From Candidatus Bathyarchaeota archaeon (GTDB lineage: Archaea; Thermoproteota; Bathyarchaeia; Bathyarchaeales; Bathycorpusculaceae), in contig OY969706.1 of NCBI GenBank assembly GCA_963702095.1, positions 960,001 through 1,024,000 of the forward strand: DNA of 64,000 nt. The letters run 5' to 3'. The notes under the pieces were generated by a model. It searched no databases and was not told the DNA's origin. It saw nothing but the letters and a program-made list of their open reading frames with translations. The position numbers were made by a program, and so were the translations under genes. This document shows, piece by piece, positions 44,485-51,982 of the stretch; within the stretch, counting starts at the first letter, position 1, and each line of letters begins with the position of its first letter.

Positions 44485-45363
44485 TTGAAATTCGGCATCA
44501 TGACACGTAACCCCGAAGCCTGGAGTAGCACACAGGTTCGTTTAGCACTCGACAAACGCAGCATCCCATACGAATGCTTCACTTTCCCACGCCTCGTCGC
44601 CCGGCTCGCCTACAAGCCCTACTTCAAAGTTAACGGAACAAGCATACTAGACGACTTAGACGCCCTCATCATCCGCCCCATCGGGCGTGGCAGCCTCGAA
44701 GAGCTGGTGTTCCGCATGGACATGCTCTATAAACTTGAGCGGCAGGGCTTCTATATGGTTAACCCCCCCTCGGCGATTGAACACTGCGTTGACAAATACG
44801 ACATACTTGCATTGCTTGAAGATGTCGGCGTTCCCGTTCCACGTACCCTTGCAACTGAGAGCGTCAACGAGGCAATCAAAGCTTTCCATGAACTCGGCGG
44901 CGACGTAGTTGTCAAACCCATCTTCGGCAGCCGCGGACAAGGCGCCACGCGAGTAAACGACATCGACATCGCCGACACTGTTTTCAAAGCCATTACCTTC
45001 CACCACGGCGTCATCTACATTCAGGAATTCGTTCCCCACGGCACCAGTGACATCCGCGCCTTCGTACTGGGCGACCAAGTTATCGCGTCGATGCGCCGTG
45101 TAGCCACAGGCTGGAAGACCAACTACAGCCAAGGAGCACGGCCTGCACCAGAAGAAATCAGTGATGAATTCAAAGAGTTAGCCGTCAAAGCCGCCAAAGC
45201 GGTGTGCTGCAAAGTTGCAGGCGTAGACATCCTTGAGGGTCCAAAGGGTCCGCGGATCGTGGATGTGAATAGTCAACCCGGTTGGAAAGGGTTGCAGGCG
45301 GTTACCAAGGTGGATGTCGCCGACGAAATCGTCAAGTTCATGCTAGACGAGTTGAAGAAGTAA
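44485..45363 (+). CDS. RimK-family ATP-grasp alpha-L-glutamate ligase (MptN/CofF-like)
   Basis: VPVPRT, VVVKPIFGSRG, YIQEFV, DIRAFV, WKTNYSQG and DVNSQPGW. Confidence 0.88.
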   Translation: MKFGIMTRNPEAWSSTQVRLALDKRSIPYECFTFPRLVARLAYKPYFKVNGTSILDDLDALIIRPIGRGSLEELVFRMDMLYKLERQGFYMVNPPSAIEHCVDKYDILALLEDVGVPVPRTLATESVNEAIKAFHELGGDVVVKPIFGSRGQGATRVNDIDIADTVFKAITFHHGVIYIQEFVPHGTSDIRAFVLGDQVIASMRRVATGWKTNYSQGARPAPEEISDEFKELAVKAAKAVCCKVAGVDILEGPKGPRIVDVNSQPGWKGLQAVTKVDVADEIVKFMLDELKK

Positions 45364-45365
45364 CC

Positions 45366-45992
45366 TCAGCGGCTTTTTCCATATTTTTCTATAGTTTCTT
45401 TGAAGGCTCTTGCTGCCCGCTGGGGATCGTCCGATTCGAGGATGGCGGAAGTTACTGCGACTCCATCGACATCCGCTTGGAGAAGAAGATGCAGTTTCTC
45501 AAGGGTGACTCCGCCTGCAGCGAAGACCGGCAGCCGAGTCAGTTTTCTCGCAGCTTGGACGGTTTCAAGCGGCACAACCGGACATGTGGAACCTTCGCAG
45601 ACATGGAAAATGGAGCAGAATGAAACGTAATCTGCGCCTCCACGTTCAGCCCACCCCAGCCTACCTAAATCAACGTTTACGGTGTAGCCTACCAAAGCGT
45701 CGTTGCCCAAAACCTTCCGTGCCTCAGCCGGCGACACATCAAAATCGTCAAAATGCACACCGCCAGCGCTAACGGCTTTAGCCAAACCCAAATCGTTGTT
45801 CACCAAAAAAGGCGTCCCCCGCTTCCCGGCTAAATCCGCCAATGCTCCAGCCAAACGCAAATCTGCAGCTGCTTTCCCAGCCGAGTACTGTAGCAAATCG
45901 ACGCCGCCTCTTAGCGCCTTCTCTGTGGCAGAGATCAGCGCGTCAGCGGACTGTATTGGCGAAACAACCAGATACAATCCATGGGGTTTCAT
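45366..45992 (-). CDS. thiamine-phosphate synthase (ThiE/TenI-fold) protein, divergent
   Basis: LYLVV, GGVDLLQ, FLVNND, GADYV, PVFAAGGVT and GVAVTSAI; ATGA overlap with the upstream gene. Confidence 0.8.
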   Translation of the reverse strand: MKPHGLYLVVSPIQSADALISATEKALRGGVDLLQYSAGKAAADLRLAGALADLAGKRGTPFLVNNDLGLAKAVSAGGVHFDDFDVSPAEARKVLGNDALVGYTVNVDLGRLGWAERGGADYVSFCSIFHVCEGSTCPVVPLETVQAARKLTRLPVFAAGGVTLEKLHLLLQADVDGVAVTSAILESDDPQRAARAFKETIEKYGKSR

Positions 45993-47041
45993 TTCCATCC
46001 GTCCCTTGAGGCTTTCCAGTAGGCTGCCCAATAAGGGTCCAACGACGGCTTCTCTAGGGGTCTGCGTTGGTCTTGGCTGTTTATCCATAGCCCCTGTTTT
46101 TTGTCGGTGATTTCTCCGATTACTGCACTCGCTATCCCCTTTGCCTCCAGTGTGTGTTGAACCGACTCTGCCTTCGCTGGTTTAACCGTTGCCAGCAGGG
46201 TGCCTTCGCTTAGAGATTCGTAGGGCGACAAGTTGAACAATTCACAGACCTGTCGTGCTTCTTGGGTAACTATGATTTTGGATTGGTCAACTTCTAAGCC
46301 TACCCCCGACGCTTGGGACAACTCGTAAAGGGCACCGAAAAGACCGCCTTCGGTAACGTCATGCATAGCCGTAACACCATCCTCCCTCAAACCAACCGAA
46401 GCCGCCGCCAATGCGTCTTCAACTACACTGAACTTGTCTATATACCGCTGGGCTTTCAGCAAAAAAACGGGTCCATAAGCTTCTTCGACGGTTTGGGGAA
46501 AAACCCGAGCAAGAATAGCTGTGGCAGCAACGGCGACACCCTTAGTCATCAAGATGATGTCGCCAGGTTGGCTCATGTTGCTAGCGATGTATCGATCTTG
46601 GGGTACCACAGCCATCATGACGCCTCCTCCCACAACCGTGTAATCACAACCCACATACCTTCCCGTGTGGCCGCCGATGACTCCTATGCCCAGTTTCTCG
46701 CATTCACTGCTTATGCAGTCCCAGTATTGCTTGAACTCTTCATCTTTCATTTGTGGGGGCAAATTTAGGTTAACCATCAGAAACTGAGGTGCAAAACCAC
46801 AGGTCGCCAAATCCGAAGCCAACAGGTGCACAGAAATATACGCGGAATCCACAAAGCCCAAAGCTGGAATAACTGAGAGCGGGTCAGCGGTTGCAACCAG
46901 CACCTGATTGCCTCCTAAGCGGACTACCGCGTTGTCGCGTCCATGACCCGGCCCCACCAGCACCTCACTCCGCTTAGCGCCCAACTTATGGTACACCAAC
47001 GCCTCGATTAGGTCTAATTCGAATTTTCCGATTTCACTCAT
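45989..47041 (-). CDS. AIR synthase-related (PurM/HypE/ThiL-fold) protein
   Basis: GPGHGRDNAV, ATADP, ASDLAT, GGHT and AMHDVTEGG. Confidence 0.85.
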   Translation of the reverse strand: MSEIGKFELDLIEALVYHKLGAKRSEVLVGPGHGRDNAVVRLGGNQVLVATADPLSVIPALGFVDSAYISVHLLASDLATCGFAPQFLMVNLNLPPQMKDEEFKQYWDCISSECEKLGIGVIGGHTGRYVGCDYTVVGGGVMMAVVPQDRYIASNMSQPGDIILMTKGVAVAATAILARVFPQTVEEAYGPVFLLKAQRYIDKFSVVEDALAAASVGLREDGVTAMHDVTEGGLFGALYELSQASGVGLEVDQSKIIVTQEARQVCELFNLSPYESLSEGTLLATVKPAKAESVQHTLEAKGIASAVIGEITDKKQGLWINSQDQRRPLEKPSLDPYWAAYWKASRDGWK

Positions 47042-47715
47042 GCAGTATCCCTCACTTCTATGGCGACTCCGAGAAAGGCTCCGAATGGGAAAACCGCCGA
47101 CTCCAAATCGCCGAAGACCTTGGGAAAAAAGGTTGTGCTCCAAAACAATATATGGTATTTCCCCTCAAAATTGTTATGCAAATGGTTTTTTATGTCATCT
47201 ATAGAGTAAAAGTGTGCTCCTTTGTAGAATGATTCTTTCTTCGTTTTTGCTTCGATTTTTTTCCTCGCTGTGCTGGCGCTGTTTTTGTTCATAAGCCCCA
47301 CGATCACTCCTTTCTTCGCCACTCTAAACGCCTCCAAAAATGTGGATGCAGCGTCGGGTAGGTATTCTAAGCTGGTTATGTAGGCGATTAAGTCTATGGA
47401 TTTGTCTTTGAAGGGTAAGTGGCTACCGTCACTTTGCAGCAGACAGCCCTCTGTCCACAGCTTCTTTGCCGCCTTCAACATCGGGGCTGAGGTATCAATG
47501 CCACAGGATTCTATCCCCTTGGAGTCGATCCATCGTGTAAAGTGCCCTGTTCCGCATCCCACTTCAAGGAGGCTTTTTGCATCCCGAAAATGGTCCAACA
47601 GCTTTGTCAGGAGCTGCTTTTCTAGGCGGTCTGCCCTCTGATACTTTGCAGTATAGTACTCTTCGTATACCCTGGCAGTTTCTTCGCTCTGGTACTTTTT
47701 GCTCATGGCTTTCAT
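47038..47715 (-). CDS. class I SAM-dependent methyltransferase
   Basis: LLEVGCGTG, GIDTSAPML and LPFKDKSID. Confidence 0.9.
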   Translation of the reverse strand: MKAMSKKYQSEETARVYEEYYTAKYQRADRLEKQLLTKLLDHFRDAKSLLEVGCGTGHFTRWIDSKGIESCGIDTSAPMLKAAKKLWTEGCLLQSDGSHLPFKDKSIDLIAYITSLEYLPDAASTFLEAFRVAKKGVIVGLMNKNSASTARKKIEAKTKKESFYKGAHFYSIDDIKNHLHNNFEGKYHILFWSTTFFPKVFGDLESAVFPFGAFLGVAIEVRDTA

Positions 47716-48258
47716 CTAAGCAAGATACTTTGTATCCAAGAATCTTCTTACAGCTATGAGGACTGCGGCGGTTATGGGTACAAAGACTAAATCTACCAGC
47801 ACAGCTAAGTCGAAGACTGCAAACCCGATTCCGAACAGAGCAAAGTCGATGGCGAAAAAAATCGCTGTTTCAACGATGACTCCAAGAACCATGCCTACGA
47901 TTTCACTCTTTTTCCTCAGAGCGCCTGCAACCAACGCCATAGGAGTTCTGGCAACAACCAAACCGACGAGGTAGATGTAGGTGAATCCTGGGGGAACCAC
48001 TATGGTTCCTATGCTTGTTCCCGCCAAGTATCCGACGGCGCATCCGATGGCTGTTGAAGTGACGCCGACTTTTGGACCCAGCAGGATAGCTACCGTAAAA
48101 ATGATTATGGGTGCCAAGTTTATGGTTGAAAGTGGAGGCGGCAGTGGTATGGCGATGATTGTGGTTACCGCAATTAACGCCGCCATGACACCGGTTAATG
48201 CTACAATTTTCGTGGATGAATAATTTTTAGTATTTTGGACAGTTAGATTCAAGTTCAT
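47716..48258 (-). CDS. ECF transporter S-component (thiamine-precursor candidate)
   Basis: GVMAALIAVTT, AILLGPKVG and hydrophobic helices; directly downstream of the TPP riboswitch. Confidence 0.8.
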   Translation of the reverse strand: MNLNLTVQNTKNYSSTKIVALTGVMAALIAVTTIIAIPLPPPLSTINLAPIIIFTVAILLGPKVGVTSTAIGCAVGYLAGTSIGTIVVPPGFTYIYLVGLVVARTPMALVAGALRKKSEIVGMVLGVIVETAIFFAIDFALFGIGFAVFDLAVLVDLVFVPITAAVLIAVRRFLDTKYLA

Positions 48259-48262
48259 TTTT

Positions 48263-48354
48263 TTCCCTCCGCCAGTATTACCTGGTTCAGGTTCGCAGGG
48301 TCGATGCCGCCTTAGGCATCCTCTCAGCCGGGTCCTATCCCAGCTCCCCAAGAA
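48263..48354 (-). ncRNA. TPP riboswitch (THI element)
   Basis: minus strand: TTCTTGGGGAGC..GCTGAGAGG..GACCCTGCGAACCTGAACCAGGTAATACTGGCGGAGGGAA contains the canonical GCTGAGA, ACCC, ACCTGA, TAAT and GCGxAGGGA elements. Confidence 0.92.
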
Positions 48355-48469
48355 CTGAAGAGAAATTGTGCCATTGTGGCATATTAGTTTTGCTTTTTTG
48401 AATCCGTCTGCTTGGGTTATGGATTGCTTTATTAGGTACAGTCACCTCAACCAAATAGGAAGCTTTTCA

Positions 48470-48706: not shown

Positions 48707-48796
48707 CTGCCTTACTGGCTGCAAAAAACGTTTTTTGTACACTTTTTTTGCGCTAACCTTTTTTAGAAAATAAACCATTTGATTCCATTGATTGAA

Positions 48797-50032
48797 ATGA
48801 CTACCTGCACTTCAGCCTTATCCTTAGACGCCCACGTATACCTGCACGACATTGAAAAAGCCGATATCCTAATCGGAATACCCAGCTTCAACAATGTCCT
48901 CACCGCAAGTTACGTGCTCTCTCAAGTCACCAAAGGCTTGGACCAGTATTTCCCAGACCACCGCTCCGTCATTTTTGTCTCTGATGGAAACTCCAAAGAT
49001 GACACCCTCAACTCCGTTAAAAGGGTCAATTTGCCCTCGCAGGTCAAACTGATACCCGCCATTTACATGGGAATATCGGGCAAGGGCTGTGCAGTGCGAG
49101 CTATCTTTGAAGCTGCCAGCCACCTCGGCGTCAAAAGTGTAGCATTGGTCGATTCAGATTTACGCAGCATAACCCCCGAGTGGATAAACCTCCTCGTGTC
49201 CCCAACCTTGGCTGGAACGGGCTTTGTTGCGCCCTACTATAACCGCCGCAAATACGACGGCACAATAACAAACTTCCTATGTTACCCCATAACTGCAAGC
49301 TTGTTCGGCAAAAACATCAGGCAACCCATAGGCGGAGACTTCGGATTATCCATCGAGTTAGTTGAGGACCTGTTGGCTTCCTCTATGTGGGAGCTACCCG
49401 ACGTTAACCGCTTCGGCATCGACATTTTCGAAACAACCACCGCGCTTGCACATGGATACGAAGTTAAGCAGGCTTATCTTGGAATCAAAGAACATGACGC
49501 TAAAGACCCATCCAGTCAACTCGCGTCCATGTTCCGCCAAGTCATGAATACCTTGTTCACTTCCATCGAGCGGTATGAGGCTGTTTGGCGCAAAATTGAG
49601 GGCTACTCTGTAACAGAGATGGTTGGCGAGCCAAAGGATGAGGAAACACCGCAGCCAATCCAAGTTTCATTACCAAACACCATAGCGGCGTTCAAAGCAA
49701 ACTATGACACGTTTAGCTCGATCTACAAGAGATGCCTAAGAGCGGAAGTCATAGCTAAATTTGACGCACTAAGAAAAATCGAAGAGGTTGACGTCGACTT
49801 CTCCTCTGACGTTTGGGCTGAAACCGTCTACTCCTTTATTGCCGAGTATCATCATGCGCCTTTTGACCAAAGAGAAAAATTGATTGATGCGTTGCGGGTT
49901 CTTTGGATTGGGCGGGTTGCAGTTTTCCTGAAGCAAACGTGGAATGAGTCAAGGGAGATGGCTGAATCAAGAATCCTTGAGGAAGTACAGGTTTTCAGAG
50001 AGCTCAGGCATCAATTAATCGAGAAGTATTAA
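48797..50032 (+). CDS. GT2 glycosyltransferase, glucosylglycerate synthase (Ggs)-like
   Basis: IGIPSFNN, SDGNSKD, SGKG, VDSDLRSITPEW, YDGTITN and IRQPIGGDF. Confidence 0.75.
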   Translation: MTTCTSALSLDAHVYLHDIEKADILIGIPSFNNVLTASYVLSQVTKGLDQYFPDHRSVIFVSDGNSKDDTLNSVKRVNLPSQVKLIPAIYMGISGKGCAVRAIFEAASHLGVKSVALVDSDLRSITPEWINLLVSPTLAGTGFVAPYYNRRKYDGTITNFLCYPITASLFGKNIRQPIGGDFGLSIELVEDLLASSMWELPDVNRFGIDIFETTTALAHGYEVKQAYLGIKEHDAKDPSSQLASMFRQVMNTLFTSIERYEAVWRKIEGYSVTEMVGEPKDEETPQPIQVSLPNTIAAFKANYDTFSSIYKRCLRAEVIAKFDALRKIEEVDVDFSSDVWAETVYSFIAEYHHAPFDQREKLIDALRVLWIGRVAVFLKQTWNESREMAESRILEEVQVFRELRHQLIEKY

Positions 50033-50040
50033 CGCTTACC

Positions 50041-50808
50041 CTACTTGTATGATAGAGTTTGAGTTACTGAAACAATTTCCTTCCAAACCGCCACCCGTTT
50101 AGCTGCACGATCAATGTAGAAAGGCTTATCCACCTTTTCTAGCATGGGCAAATCGTTTGGGCCATCGCCGACGCCGACCGTGCAGACATCGCCAAATTGC
50201 TGCCTATACAACTCTTTTAGAATTGCCACTGCCTTGCCTTTGTCTGTGTTGCCCAAGGCGTGGAAATATCGTCCACCCAAAGTGTAGCATAGACCCTCAT
50301 TGCTTAATGCCTGCAGAACCTCCTGTTTGTTTCCGCTTAATATTTTGAAGGGTTCACTGTACTCTCTTTCTTTAGCAAGCTTCGCCTCAGCCAACGGCAG
50401 ACCATTATCAGCGGCTACTTCCTCCACGGTCATGTCTGCGAATCCGATGATGTTTGCTCCGGTTTGGAGTTTGATGGCTGCCAGTTTTCTGCAGATAACC
50501 CCGTATGGAAGCCCCAGTTCAATTACACAGTTGCCATAGGCTTTCTTGCAAAAATCAAAGCTATGAGAGAAGTAATTTTTAGGAATGATTATGGCTGAGC
50601 CGTTTTCGACGATGTAGGGGGCTGTGAGTTGGAGTTTTTCTCTGTAGAGGTTGATTTCACTTTTTGTTTTGCTGCTGACCAAAACCACTGAGACTTTGCG
50701 GGCAAACAGTTCCCTTAGGCTGGGTTCTATGTCGGTGTACTCATAGTTTGCGTTAAGCAGGCTGCCGTCGAGGTCGCTGAAGATAACAATCTTTCTCTTA
50801 TTGTTCAA
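50041..50808 (-). CDS. gpgP: glucosyl/mannosyl-3-phosphoglycerate phosphatase (HAD IIB)
   Basis: DLDGSLL, SSKT, ENGS, REYSEP, GGRYFH, DKGKA and GDGPND. Confidence 0.8.
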   Translation of the reverse strand: MNNKRKIVIFSDLDGSLLNANYEYTDIEPSLRELFARKVSVVLVSSKTKSEINLYREKLQLTAPYIVENGSAIIIPKNYFSHSFDFCKKAYGNCVIELGLPYGVICRKLAAIKLQTGANIIGFADMTVEEVAADNGLPLAEAKLAKEREYSEPFKILSGNKQEVLQALSNEGLCYTLGGRYFHALGNTDKGKAVAILKELYRQQFGDVCTVGVGDGPNDLPMLEKVDKPFYIDRAAKRVAVWKEIVSVTQTLSYK

Positions 50809-51982
50809 TTGCTTTTTCCCTAAGCCTCTCTCTAATATTGGGCATAGCCGCCATAGTTCTTAACCAATCTGGCAGTTGTGCCCTCACAGGGTTTTCCATG
50901 TATTTTCTGCCCCCTGACATGATAACTGAGCTTAATGAGTCAACGTTTGTTTCTTCCTCATGCCTATCAAAGATTAGTCTGTTGCAGGTAGCATCCGCAT
51001 GGTATTGCCTGATTTTATCTTGCGCTAACCTTCTATATGCAACTTGGAGGCTGGTGAGGAAGGGTTCTGTAACATCGATGTTTTCTGTTTCAGCCAATGT
51101 CCGCAGCAGGGTTACAAAGGTGTCTTCAGCGGTTTTAAGTAAGCCGTTGCCGTCTATGGGTTTATGTCTGTGGTCGTAGACGCCGAGGTCGACTTGACAG
51201 ATGCGTCCGTAAGCCGCATTCCGGTAGACTTCGGAGAGTAAACCCAGTTCAAGCCCCCAATCGCTAGGCACCCTTAGGTGGGTTGCTAGGTCTCCGTAGA
51301 CTGCGATTTCGCCTGCAAGCGGATAACTAAAGGATTGCATGTAAGTTAGGAATTTTGAATACCGAAGTTTCTCCTGCAACACTTCTAGGATTGGATTGAT
51401 GAACAATCGGTGTATGCGCCCATAAAACCGTTTGTTTTCTAGACTAATCCTTGCGTAGTATCCTTTGGCGAAGAAGAAATCAAGTTTCGGCTCAATAACA
51501 GGGTAGAGCATCTTTGTGGGCAACATTTTTGTGTAGGAAACTATGTCGGCGTCATGCATTGCGAATGCAAAAAGGTCTATTGATGCTATCCCCATTGCCA
51601 TCCAGACATCTTTGCCTTTTCCTGAATGCTGGGTAACGTCTAATCCTTTGCTTTTAAGTTCTTCTAGAACCGCAAGCACCTCAGGCTTGTTGCACCATAT
51701 TACTTCGCAGGGGATTTTGAAGCTGCGACTTACTCTTAGGGCTTCCTCGTATTCATGGGGGTCTTTAACTGTTAGGGCAATGTAGACTTTGCTTAAATAA
51801 CGGCACTTATTTATTTCCTCGACGATTTTTGGTAATCCGGGACCGTTGATGTCGCTTCCGAAAATTGGGATTATCAAGCCTGAGGGAAATTTTTCTTTAA
51901 GGCTTAACAGGTTAGTTGATAATTCATCAAAATCCAAAAAGAAATCGTGAATATTAGCAATCTTCCGCTGATCGATATTCAT
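50798..51982 (-). CDS. gpgS: glucosyl-3-phosphoglycerate synthase
   Basis: GKGKDVW, HDADI, KGYYAR, YPLAGE, DWGLE and YDHRHK. Confidence 0.8.
   Translation of the reverse strand: MNIDQRKIANIHDFFLDFDELSTNLLSLKEKFPSGLIIPIFGSDINGPGLPKIVEEINKCRYLSKVYIALTVKDPHEYEEALRVSRSFKIPCEVIWCNKPEVLAVLEELKSKGLDVTQHSGKGKDVWMAMGIASIDLFAFAMHDADIVSYTKMLPTKMLYPVIEPKLDFFFAKGYYARISLENKRFYGRIHRLFINPILEVLQEKLRYSKFLTYMQSFSYPLAGEIAVYGDLATHLRVPSDWGLELGLLSEVYRNAAYGRICQVDLGVYDHRHKPIDGNGLLKTAEDTFVTLLRTLAETENIDVTEPFLTSLQVAYRRLAQDKIRQYHADATCNRLIFDRHEEETNVDSLSSVIMSGGRKYMENPVRAQLPDWLRTMAAMPNIRERLREKAIEQ

Follow-up and report, generated by a model that had tools for sequence, protein, structure and literature searches.

The window analysed here, a 64,000-nucleotide stretch of the genome of a Candidatus Bathyarchaeota archaeon (assembly GCA_963702095.1, contig OY969706.1, positions 960,001 to 1,024,000), carries on its minus strand a four-gene operon headed by a thiamine pyrophosphate (TPP) riboswitch. 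The products are the S-component of an energy-coupling factor (ECF) transporter, a class I methyltransferase dependent on S-adenosylmethionine (SAM), an ATP-utilising protein of the PurM fold, here called PurM-like, and a paralogue of ThiE, here called ThiE'. The three enzyme genes form a cassette which, across the 29 host genomes examined, is confined to genomes devoid of ThiC, ThiD and canonical ThiE. The cassette probably constitutes a new route of thiamine salvage, assembled from paralogous enzymes whose folds are known: the operon would work like thiW-thiM-thiE or thiD-thiE, yet none of its three enzymes passes the membership test of the enzyme that it resembles. Altogether, with a probability of about 0.75-0.8, it represents an undescribed and widespread TPP-controlled salvage cassette that stands in for ThiD and ThiE in vitamin B1 auxotrophs. 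The first-pass annotation, obtained from the DNA sequence alone, had postulated an undescribed thiamine salvage route involving a methyltransferase and a PurM-fold protein, and comparative genomics now strongly supports this idea. A literature search, covering titles and the beginnings of abstracts, retrieved no publication describing the cassette.

The operon and its riboswitch

All four gene types proposed in the first-pass annotation were assigned by Pfam, and the control by TPP that it suggested was confirmed by a full-length Rfam match, located just past the end of the segment then described. The elements of the operon are the following:

48247-48360, minus strand: TPP riboswitch aptamer (RF00059, 62.8 bits, gathering score 54.3; model positions 1-105 of 105)
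47716-48258, minus strand: ECF S-component, 180 aa (PF07155, 40.3 bits, cut-off 26.7)
47038-47715, minus strand: class I SAM-dependent methyltransferase, 225 aa (PF08241, 69.1 bits)
45989-47041, minus strand: PurM-fold ATP-utilising protein, 350 aa (PF00586, 53.3 bits; PF02769, 80.7 bits)
45366-45998 (likely; the longest open reading frame, ORF, extends to 46088), minus strand: ThiE paralogue, ThiE' (PF02581, 122.7 bits)

RF00059 is the sole Rfam match in the 64-kb window, and the TPP riboswitch is single-copy in the whole source genome, which consists of one contig of 2.94 Mb and is rated 90% complete. A look-up of sequencing runs listed no RNA run for it, and DNA runs with small shares of 0.06-0.17. 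The 3' end of the aptamer match spans a Shine-Dalgarno-like GGAGG and the ATG of the S-component at 48258, an arrangement that suits control of translation initiation. As already indicated by the first-pass annotation, the genes abut or overlap, and all three junctions could be read from the sequence: the TAG stop codon of the S-component is followed without any gap by the ATG of the methyltransferase; the methyltransferase and PurM-like genes overlap in ATGA; and the TGA of the PurM-like gene overlaps, again as ATGA, the codon for the second Met, M33, of the ThiE-like ORF. The four co-oriented genes are translationally coupled. Translation of ThiE' probably starts at M31 (45998) or M33 (45992) rather than at 46088, since residues 9-31 of the long ORF are modelled with pLDDT below 50 and several homologues start at the MEM position.

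The layout recalls the ThiW/ThiM/ThiE and ThiD/ThiE riboswitch operons, which likewise join genes for uptake, for ATP-dependent activation and for a ThiE-fold protein behind a TPP riboswitch; as in these operons, the output would be directed to ThiL. Differently from these operons, no ribokinase-like ThiM or ThiD is found, the ATP-dependent enzyme has a PurM fold and a SAM-dependent methyltransferase is obligate; moreover, neither de novo branch is encoded in the host genomes, and ThiE' has lost the pyrophosphate and Mg ligands while displaying two invariant cysteines.

Host genomes and distribution of the cassette

The source genome revealed no match for ThiC, ThiD (PF08543), thiamine pyrophosphokinase (TPK) or ThiN, and ThiG is absent too. 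A real ThiM was not found, the sole family match (27 bits, 85 profile positions) lying inside a 516-aa ORF; the same holds for Thi4, whose matches fall in large flavoproteins and are restricted to about 40 positions at the N-terminal end of the profile. A tblastn search of this genome with validated proteins from other loci detected no TenA, ThiT, ThiB, TPK, ThiV-like SSF symporter, ThiY, ThiX or YkoE. ThiE' is the only real TMP-TENI gene, and a canonical ThiL is encoded elsewhere (C1:439525-440484; 238.9 bits, cut-off 184.15). By the usual rules, this inventory indicates that neither half of thiamine is made and that thiamine is not pyrophosphorylated; the B1 genes reduce to ThiL and the operon, and among thiC, thiD, thiM, thi4 and thiL, the set that the first-pass annotation had singled out, thiL alone is present.

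A similar picture emerged for the other hosts. Neither ThiD (controls positive in 13-14 of 14) nor ThiC (controls positive in 13 of 14) was found in any of 29 cassette genomes; ThiG was missing from all nine genomes tested for it, Thi4 from all six, and real ThiM and real TPK from all four, while ThiL exceeded its cut-off in three of four. ThiE' is the sole TMP-TENI gene in 29/29 cassette genomes; one metagenome-assembled genome (MAG) has two copies, both belonging to cassettes.

Within Bathyarchaeia, a close ThiE' (E <= 1e-47) is present in 9 of 401 sampled genomes, the source genome included, and the eight loci retrieved all contain the identical four genes in identical order. Patterns derived from the ThiE' alignment were searched for in 185,579 species genomes and gave 51 loci; once merged with those found earlier, 50 non-redundant ThiE' loci besides the window were available. 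The strict order methyltransferase, PurM-like, ThiE' is found in 42 of them; in three others the trio is fragmented or mis-called (L059, L122, L127), and three are cut by contig ends (L092, L103, L125). The TPP riboswitch reaches the gathering score in 19 of 27 non-redundant cassette loci scanned. Thus, the linkage of the methyltransferase and AIR-synthase-like genes with a ThiE-like gene, on which the first-pass annotation had staked its proposal, recurs outside the window. The methyltransferase had appeared to be limited to Bathyarchaeia when single-sequence patterns were used (3 loci), a suggestion overturned by the alignment-based scan.

Judged by record titles, the hosts include Bathyarchaeia, Nitrososphaerales and other Thermoproteota, Bipolaricaulota (Acetothermia), Fraserbacteria, Ignavibacterium, Candidatus Chrysopegis, Gammaproteobacteria and several Bacteroidota. 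The last group comprises Roseivirga thermotolerans, Marinoscillum luteum and Pseudoflavitalea rhizosphaerae, which are cultured, together with Ohtaekwangia and a Cyclobacteriaceae chromosome. The position of the riboswitch varies: in Bacteroidota it directly precedes the methyltransferase, and in Bipolaricaulota/Fraserbacteria it lies ahead of a ThiY-type transporter in all four loci scanned out of six. Two contigs labelled Candidatus Acidoferrum and Methylomirabilota (L018 and L019, the latter equal to L062) bear Bathyarchaeia-type loci, and a genome assigned to Bathyarchaeia contains a contig identical to L019; the labels or binning look wrong.

Enzymes and transporters of the cassette

The predicted structure of ThiE' finds its best Foldseek match in Bacillus subtilis ThiE (2TPS; TM 0.76, 29% identity), while TenI gives TM 0.67-0.68; over the two B. 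subtilis entries, 2TPS and 1G4T, the shared TIM-barrel corresponds to TM 0.76-0.80 and 28-29% identity. However, the ThiE equivalog TIGR00693 is missed (119 bits, cut-off 145.1), and the other ThiE equivalog models score far below their cut-offs. The first-pass annotation had noticed that canonical residues are lacking, and an HMMER comparison with B. subtilis ThiE (1G4T/2TPS) agrees: QYS..AGK falls on QFReKGG, VNND on VNDD, HFDDFD on HIGQED and SIFHV.CEGST on PIYPTETKKDT. In terms of single residues, R59 is replaced by S, K61 by G or a gap, D93 by N, the G-Q of HxGQxD by D-D, S130 by T, T156 by V, T158 by C and K159 by E, and D112 is retained as D. R59, K61 and K159 are presumably the pyrophosphate ligands and D93 and D112 the Mg ligands (B. 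subtilis numbering). ThiE' keeps the Gln, GG and Ser positions (equivalents of Gln57, G188 and S209), the first of which we take to belong to the pyrimidine site and the others to thiazole-phosphate binding.

Conservation was counted on 48 non-identical sequences, given in window numbering; the single outlier observed at several positions is a canonical ThiE included in the set. H112, F157 and the pair G192-G193 are present in all 48 sequences, Q67, T136, S156, C158 and C169 in 47, D114 and S214 in 46. Position 69, equivalent to R59, is W in 34 sequences, S in 9 and I in 3, and never R; the equivalent of D93 is N in 31, G in 7 and D in 6, and that of D112 is variable (D in 21, E in 11, H in 4). 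Compared with B. subtilis ThiE, the family has thus exchanged R59 for W, S or I, lost K61, K159, T156 and T158, replaced the Gly of HxGQxD with Asp and gained an SFC motif and a second Cys. Judged on its sequence, the basic, Mg-binding pyrophosphate pocket of ThiE' is replaced by aromatic or acidic residues (Trp, Asp, Tyr, Phe) and two cysteines, while the putative sites for the pyrimidine and for its phosphorylated partner remain; by the same residues, ThiE' is not a canonical synthase. TenI, the thiazole tautomerase to which the first-pass annotation had compared it, also combines a ThiE fold with the loss of the synthase residues and the retention of the thiazole-phosphate site. However, the comparison does not extend to membership, since ThiE' reaches 56.7 bits with the TenI model NF005819, whose cut-off is 251; moreover, TenI functions together with ThiG, whose pathway is missing from the cassette genomes tested (ThiG in 0/9).

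The PurM-like protein contains both the N- and the C-terminal AIRS domains typical of the PurM superfamily, and its structure is predicted with a pLDDT of 94.2. The best PDB match is HypE (TM 0.79); ThiL gives TM 0.66-0.68, and SelD, PurL and PurM are matched as well. The likeness to these proteins concerns the two AIRS domains and, for ThiL, also the link to thiamine. All the equivalog cut-offs are missed: thiL (TIGR01379) 91.9 bits vs 184.15, hypE (TIGR02124) 87.7 vs 251.6, selD 81.7 vs 125. Identity with ThiL could be ruled out, since the thiL cut-off is missed and a canonical ThiL co-exists with the PurM-like protein, which forms its own clade, in 28 of 32 genomes. HypE was rejected too: besides the missed cut-off, its C-terminal cysteine, which carries the carbamoyl or cyano group, has no counterpart in the ...SRDGWK terminus of the PurM-like protein, and the genomic context is made of thiamine and not hyp genes. 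In the source records the proteins bear generic names, such as "hydrogenase expression/formation protein HypE", "AIR synthase family protein" and "uncharacterized membrane protein".

A first scan for relatives of the PurM-like protein identified 31 loci with 42-73% identity; in the 32 genomes of this family first profiled, no real ThiM and no real TPK were found, with ThiL in 28. Phylogenetic analyses (IQ-TREE, and FastTree on 90 sequences) place the family in a clade of its own, divided into two subfamilies. Subfamily 1 includes every cassette copy, archaeal and bacterial, a two-gene clade and one locus of Bipolaricaulota, in which the riboswitch is followed by PurM-like and then by a ThiBPQ-like ABC transporter. 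The two-gene loci, which nest within the cassette clade, were surveyed in another 20 loci of Bathyarchaeia, 14 with the best scores and 6 with lower ones, taken from about 43 genomes with an orthologue. The PurM-like gene lies directly behind ThiT in 12 of them (the reference ThiT was validated with PF09515, 151 bits) and behind a homologue of the window's S-component (31-38% identity) in 7, and nothing was detected upstream in the remaining one. Neither the methyltransferase nor ThiE' was found in any of the 20 loci; a TPP riboswitch is present in 12 of 13 scanned. Two genomes with such a gene pair (G004 and G006) were profiled and both contain ThiL, without ThiC, ThiD, ThiE, ThiM or TPK. A genome that imports thiamine and has ThiL alone needs a thiamine kinase, and the riboswitch-controlled PurM-like gene is the obvious candidate. 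The first-pass annotation had thought of a kinase, a proposal that fits the pairing with the ThiT and ThiBPQ transporters and receives moderate support.

Subfamily 2 is bacterial. In 11 loci the gene abuts a canonical ThiE (QLRDK, VNDR, HVGQxD and GTKPD in the alignment), in two loci TenA is found between PurM-like and ThiE, and in 4-5 loci the gene follows IscS-NifU; a TPP riboswitch is present in 7 of 26 loci. For the whole family, a general replacement of ThiD was rejected, since 16 of 31 genomes have a full-length ThiD, among them every genome in which the gene abuts canonical ThiE. Such a role is conceivable for eight bacterial genomes (G016-G021, G026, G031), mostly labelled Chloroflexota/Dehalococcoidia, which have ThiC and no ThiD, with canonical ThiE in six; each carries a subfamily 2 PurM-like gene, and in four the gene adjoins IscS-NifU (L031-L033, L046). 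ThiC without ThiD leaves these genomes with no known kinase for hydroxymethylpyrimidine (HMP) phosphate, and the subfamily 2 protein could be the missing enzyme or have a sulfur-related role.

The methyltransferase is a class I SAM-dependent enzyme, characterized by a Methyltransf_11/25-type domain with an intact SAM site: the GxGxG motif, here VGCGTG, and the acidic residue after strand 2, here D74, are invariant in 44/44 members. The family also shares an N-terminal aromatic/acidic motif, with Y17, E18 and Y21 in 44/44, followed by G53xG55T and F59-T60-R61-W62. No NCBIfam model is reached (BioC, TIGR02072, 63.3 bits vs 184.95), and the clusters retrieved from the ESM Atlas were all of the generic Methyltransf_11 type. 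Directly behind ThiE', each of the nine loci from Bacteroidota and Gammaproteobacteria has a Trm112-like ORF of about 90 aa (e.g. L119:5699-5983 and L130:4922-5197); class I methyltransferases are activated by partner proteins of the Trm112 type. The source genome has a Trm112-like match away from the operon (C1:2700026-2700238).

The S-component of the window belongs to the PF07155 family and, on Pfam evidence, is not ThiT (no PF09515 match at E <= 0.01), ThiW or YkoE. Every one of the 110 relatives found is an unnamed membrane protein; three CbiQ-type ECF T components are located elsewhere in the source genome. Other cassettes have different transporters. In six loci, five from Bipolaricaulota and one from Fraserbacteria, a ThiZ-ThiX-ThiY system lies directly upstream of the trio and consists of an ABC ATPase, a permease and a binding protein of the ThiY type (NMT1 domain, 204 bits); in five Thermoproteota loci the cassette adjoins a YkoE-type S-component with CbiQ and an ATPase; in Ignavibacterium the order is riboswitch, TonB-dependent receptor, trio, TPK, SSF symporter. 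The transporter differs between lineages and the three enzymes are constant, indicating that the transporter is interchangeable.

A second S-component is encoded directly upstream of a PurM paralogue in the source genome (C1:484413-486031; locus L133:6411-8031, minus strand). It matches PF07155 with 108 bits and TIGR04002 with 60.9 bits, the latter under the cut-off; the paralogue is 30% identical to the PurM-like protein of the operon, and no Rfam match was found at that locus. Matches at this level (31-39% identity) occur in about 140 of 401 sampled Bathyarchaeia genomes, and the pair may represent another vitamin transporter with its trapping kinase. A second methyltransferase/PurM-like pair, suspected near C1:481-485 kb, was discarded: the methyltransferase match is an unrelated 110-aa fragment amid glycosyltransferase genes, and the true neighbour is the S-component.

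Proposed function, alternatives and neighbouring genes

The operon is likely to provide a salvage route for thiamine vitamers that feeds ThiL, in which the PurM-like protein would phosphorylate the hydroxyethyl-thiazole moiety and the methyltransferase and ThiE' would perform a coupling or exchange independent of pyrophosphate. At low TPP the operon would be switched on, and its output would be thiamine monophosphate (TMP), passed on to the canonical ThiL. The PurM-like protein would act as an ATP-dependent kinase of the thiazole hydroxyethyl group, converting thiamine to TMP and hydroxyethylthiazole to its phosphate, in place of ThiM. This role as hydroxyethyl-group kinase is somewhat favoured, since a kinase acting on that group, in the free thiazole or within thiamine, fits all the contexts of the PurM-like gene described above.

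The following steps are more tentative. ThiE' could bind the pyrimidine through Q67 and the phosphorylated thiazole through G192-G193 and S214, without using HMP-pyrophosphate. The methyltransferase might replace the ThiD-type activation by methylating the pyrimidine donor, which would thus acquire a cationic leaving group; the simplest candidate donor is the environmental vitamer 4-amino-5-aminomethyl-2-methylpyrimidine, methylated on its amine. ThiE' would then swap this group for thiazole phosphate by thiaminase-like Cys catalysis. The mechanism is preferred because the trio of enzymes corresponds to ThiD, ThiM and ThiE of classical dual salvage; however, methyl activation of the pyrimidine with a Cys-type exchange by ThiE' must be considered doubtful. 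The same anatomy also fits methylation of an HMP-phosphate ester to give a better leaving group, or a His/Asp/Cys/Cys metal site in ThiE', which H112, D114, C158 and C169 might form. It is likewise unlikely that two new activities are present jointly, namely the first PurM-fold alcohol kinase (in place of ThiM, ThiK or TPK) and a pyrophosphate-independent TMP synthase of ThiE' type, based on Cys or on a metal bound by Cys, His and Asp. The resemblance to thiaminase I and TenA (thiaminase II), where an active-site Cys displaces a leaving group on the pyrimidine methylene, is a hypothesis only: no sequence similarity is claimed, the folds are unrelated and the direction proposed for ThiE' is synthetic. 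As for the scheme put forward by the first-pass annotation, the idea of a desmethyl pyrimidine or thiazole as substrate found no support, and the order import, methylation, phosphorylation, coupling is conjectural.

Several points weigh against the proposed function. To our knowledge, phosphorylation of an alcohol is not a reaction of any PurM-superfamily enzyme; the targets of the known members are amide or formyl oxygens, selenide or a phosphate. In Ignavibacterium, TPK shares the operon, and a thiamine kinase would be partly redundant there. Coupling takes both a pyrimidine and a thiazole, yet a single S-component is encoded in the operon and a source of thiazole is missing from the genome. 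Enzymes of the TenA type can displace ammonia from a substrate that has not been methylated, and methyl activation is thus not chemically required. In two of the 50 ThiE' loci, both from Thermoproteota (L102:3738-4952 and L104), a CoaBC gene (DFP flavoprotein) replaces the PurM-like gene between the methyltransferase and ThiE'. In eight of the 27 cassette loci that were scanned, no riboswitch reaches the gathering score, although two of them attain 53.7-53.9 bits and one has no upstream sequence. The distribution is patchy, with the cassette in none of 40 sampled genomes of the same genus; finally, many cassette genomes are incomplete MAGs, although the set also holds isolate genomes of 4.2-6.7 Mb. 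The lack of a thiazole source beside a single S-component, the TPK of Ignavibacterium, the two loci without the PurM-like gene and the patchy distribution all limit the confidence in the detailed mechanism; the general reading of the cassette as a salvage route is not contradicted by any of them.

An improbable alternative, although the best of those considered, is the repair or re-use of base-degraded thiamine. In this case the PurM-like protein would work as PurM and PurL classically do, using ATP to activate the formamide oxygen of N-formyl-4-amino-5-aminomethyl-2-methylpyrimidine (FAMP) or of the ring-opened N-formyl thiol form of thiamine, and ThiE' and the methyltransferase would complete the ring closure or exchange. 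The fold and domains of the PurM-like protein are indeed those of formyl- and amide-activating enzymes; ThiY binds FAMP, and ThiY-type (NMT1) binding proteins occur in riboswitch-controlled cassette operons at six loci; in addition, the second PurM-like subfamily adjoins the sulfur-mobilising IscS-NifU in 4-5 loci. However, the two-gene forms pair the PurM-like protein with ThiT or ThiBPQ, which transport intact thiamine, in genomes that have ThiL and neither TPK nor ThiM and so need a thiamine kinase. Moreover, the thiol form closes its ring spontaneously at near-neutral pH, and the role of the methyltransferase is left unexplained.

Still less probable is an ordinary salvage of thiazole or pyrimidine, of the ThiW-ThiM-ThiE or ThiD-ThiE type, carried out by divergent enzymes, with ThiE' as a synthase acting on HMP-pyrophosphate, the PurM-like protein as HMP-phosphate kinase and the methyltransferase as an incidental component. 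The PF02581 score of ThiE' (122.7 bits) and its best fold match, B. subtilis ThiE, are in line with it; ThiL too phosphorylates a phosphate, and the eight bacterial subfamily 2 genomes with ThiC, mostly with ThiE and without ThiD, miss an HMP-phosphate kinase. Conversely, ThiE' has no equivalents of R59, K61 and K159, D93 is mostly replaced and D112 variable, and the TIGR00693 cut-off is missed; ThiC is found in 0/29 cassette genomes, which have no internal source of HMP-phosphate; the methyltransferase is conserved equally with the other two genes; and the two-gene forms are present in genomes without any ThiE. The handling of a thiamine antagonist or analogue, either by methylation of a 2-oxo pyrimidine as in bacimethrin biosynthesis or as detoxification of an antivitamin, is very improbable: we know of no methyltransferase in thiamine-related chemistry other than BcmC of the bacimethrin cluster, which is also reported to lie downstream of a TPP riboswitch, but the B1 auxotrophs have no ThiE-family gene besides ThiE', which is induced at low TPP, no thiaminase I, BcmA or BcmB homologue was found among the annotated flanks, and the linked transporters are for uptake and not for export.

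Vitamin B1 auxotrophy and the exchange of vitamers shape soil, sediment, marine and gut communities, and genome-based predictions of B1 requirement rest on the set ThiC, ThiD, ThiE, ThiM, ThiG, Thi4 and TPK. By the current rules, the hosts of the cassette would be scored as users of intact thiamine only, or misannotated with ThiE and HypE. If another vitamer is salvaged, the cassette would add a new route to the B1 cycle, with up to three new activities in well-studied folds, and it could explain which compounds sustain abundant uncultured archaea. If methyl activation is indeed used, SAM-dependent methylation would replace the ThiD-type pyrophosphorylation in the activation of the pyrimidine half. 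The cassette is directly testable, since three carriers are in culture and the genes are small and code for soluble proteins.

On both sides of the operon, the window contains genes of other types. A RimK-family ligase (44485-45363, plus strand) is convergent with it; its best model is the tetrahydromethanopterin:alpha-L-glutamate ligase MptN (258.5 bits, under the cut-off of 350). The gene is syntenic, with 73-93% identity, in the closest Bathyarchaeia loci only, and it is probably unrelated to the cassette. On the other side, glycosyltransferase-like genes adjoin the operon (48779-51982), the first showing a sub-threshold match (24.4 bits, threshold 27) to the glycosyltransferase domain of mannosylglycerate synthase.

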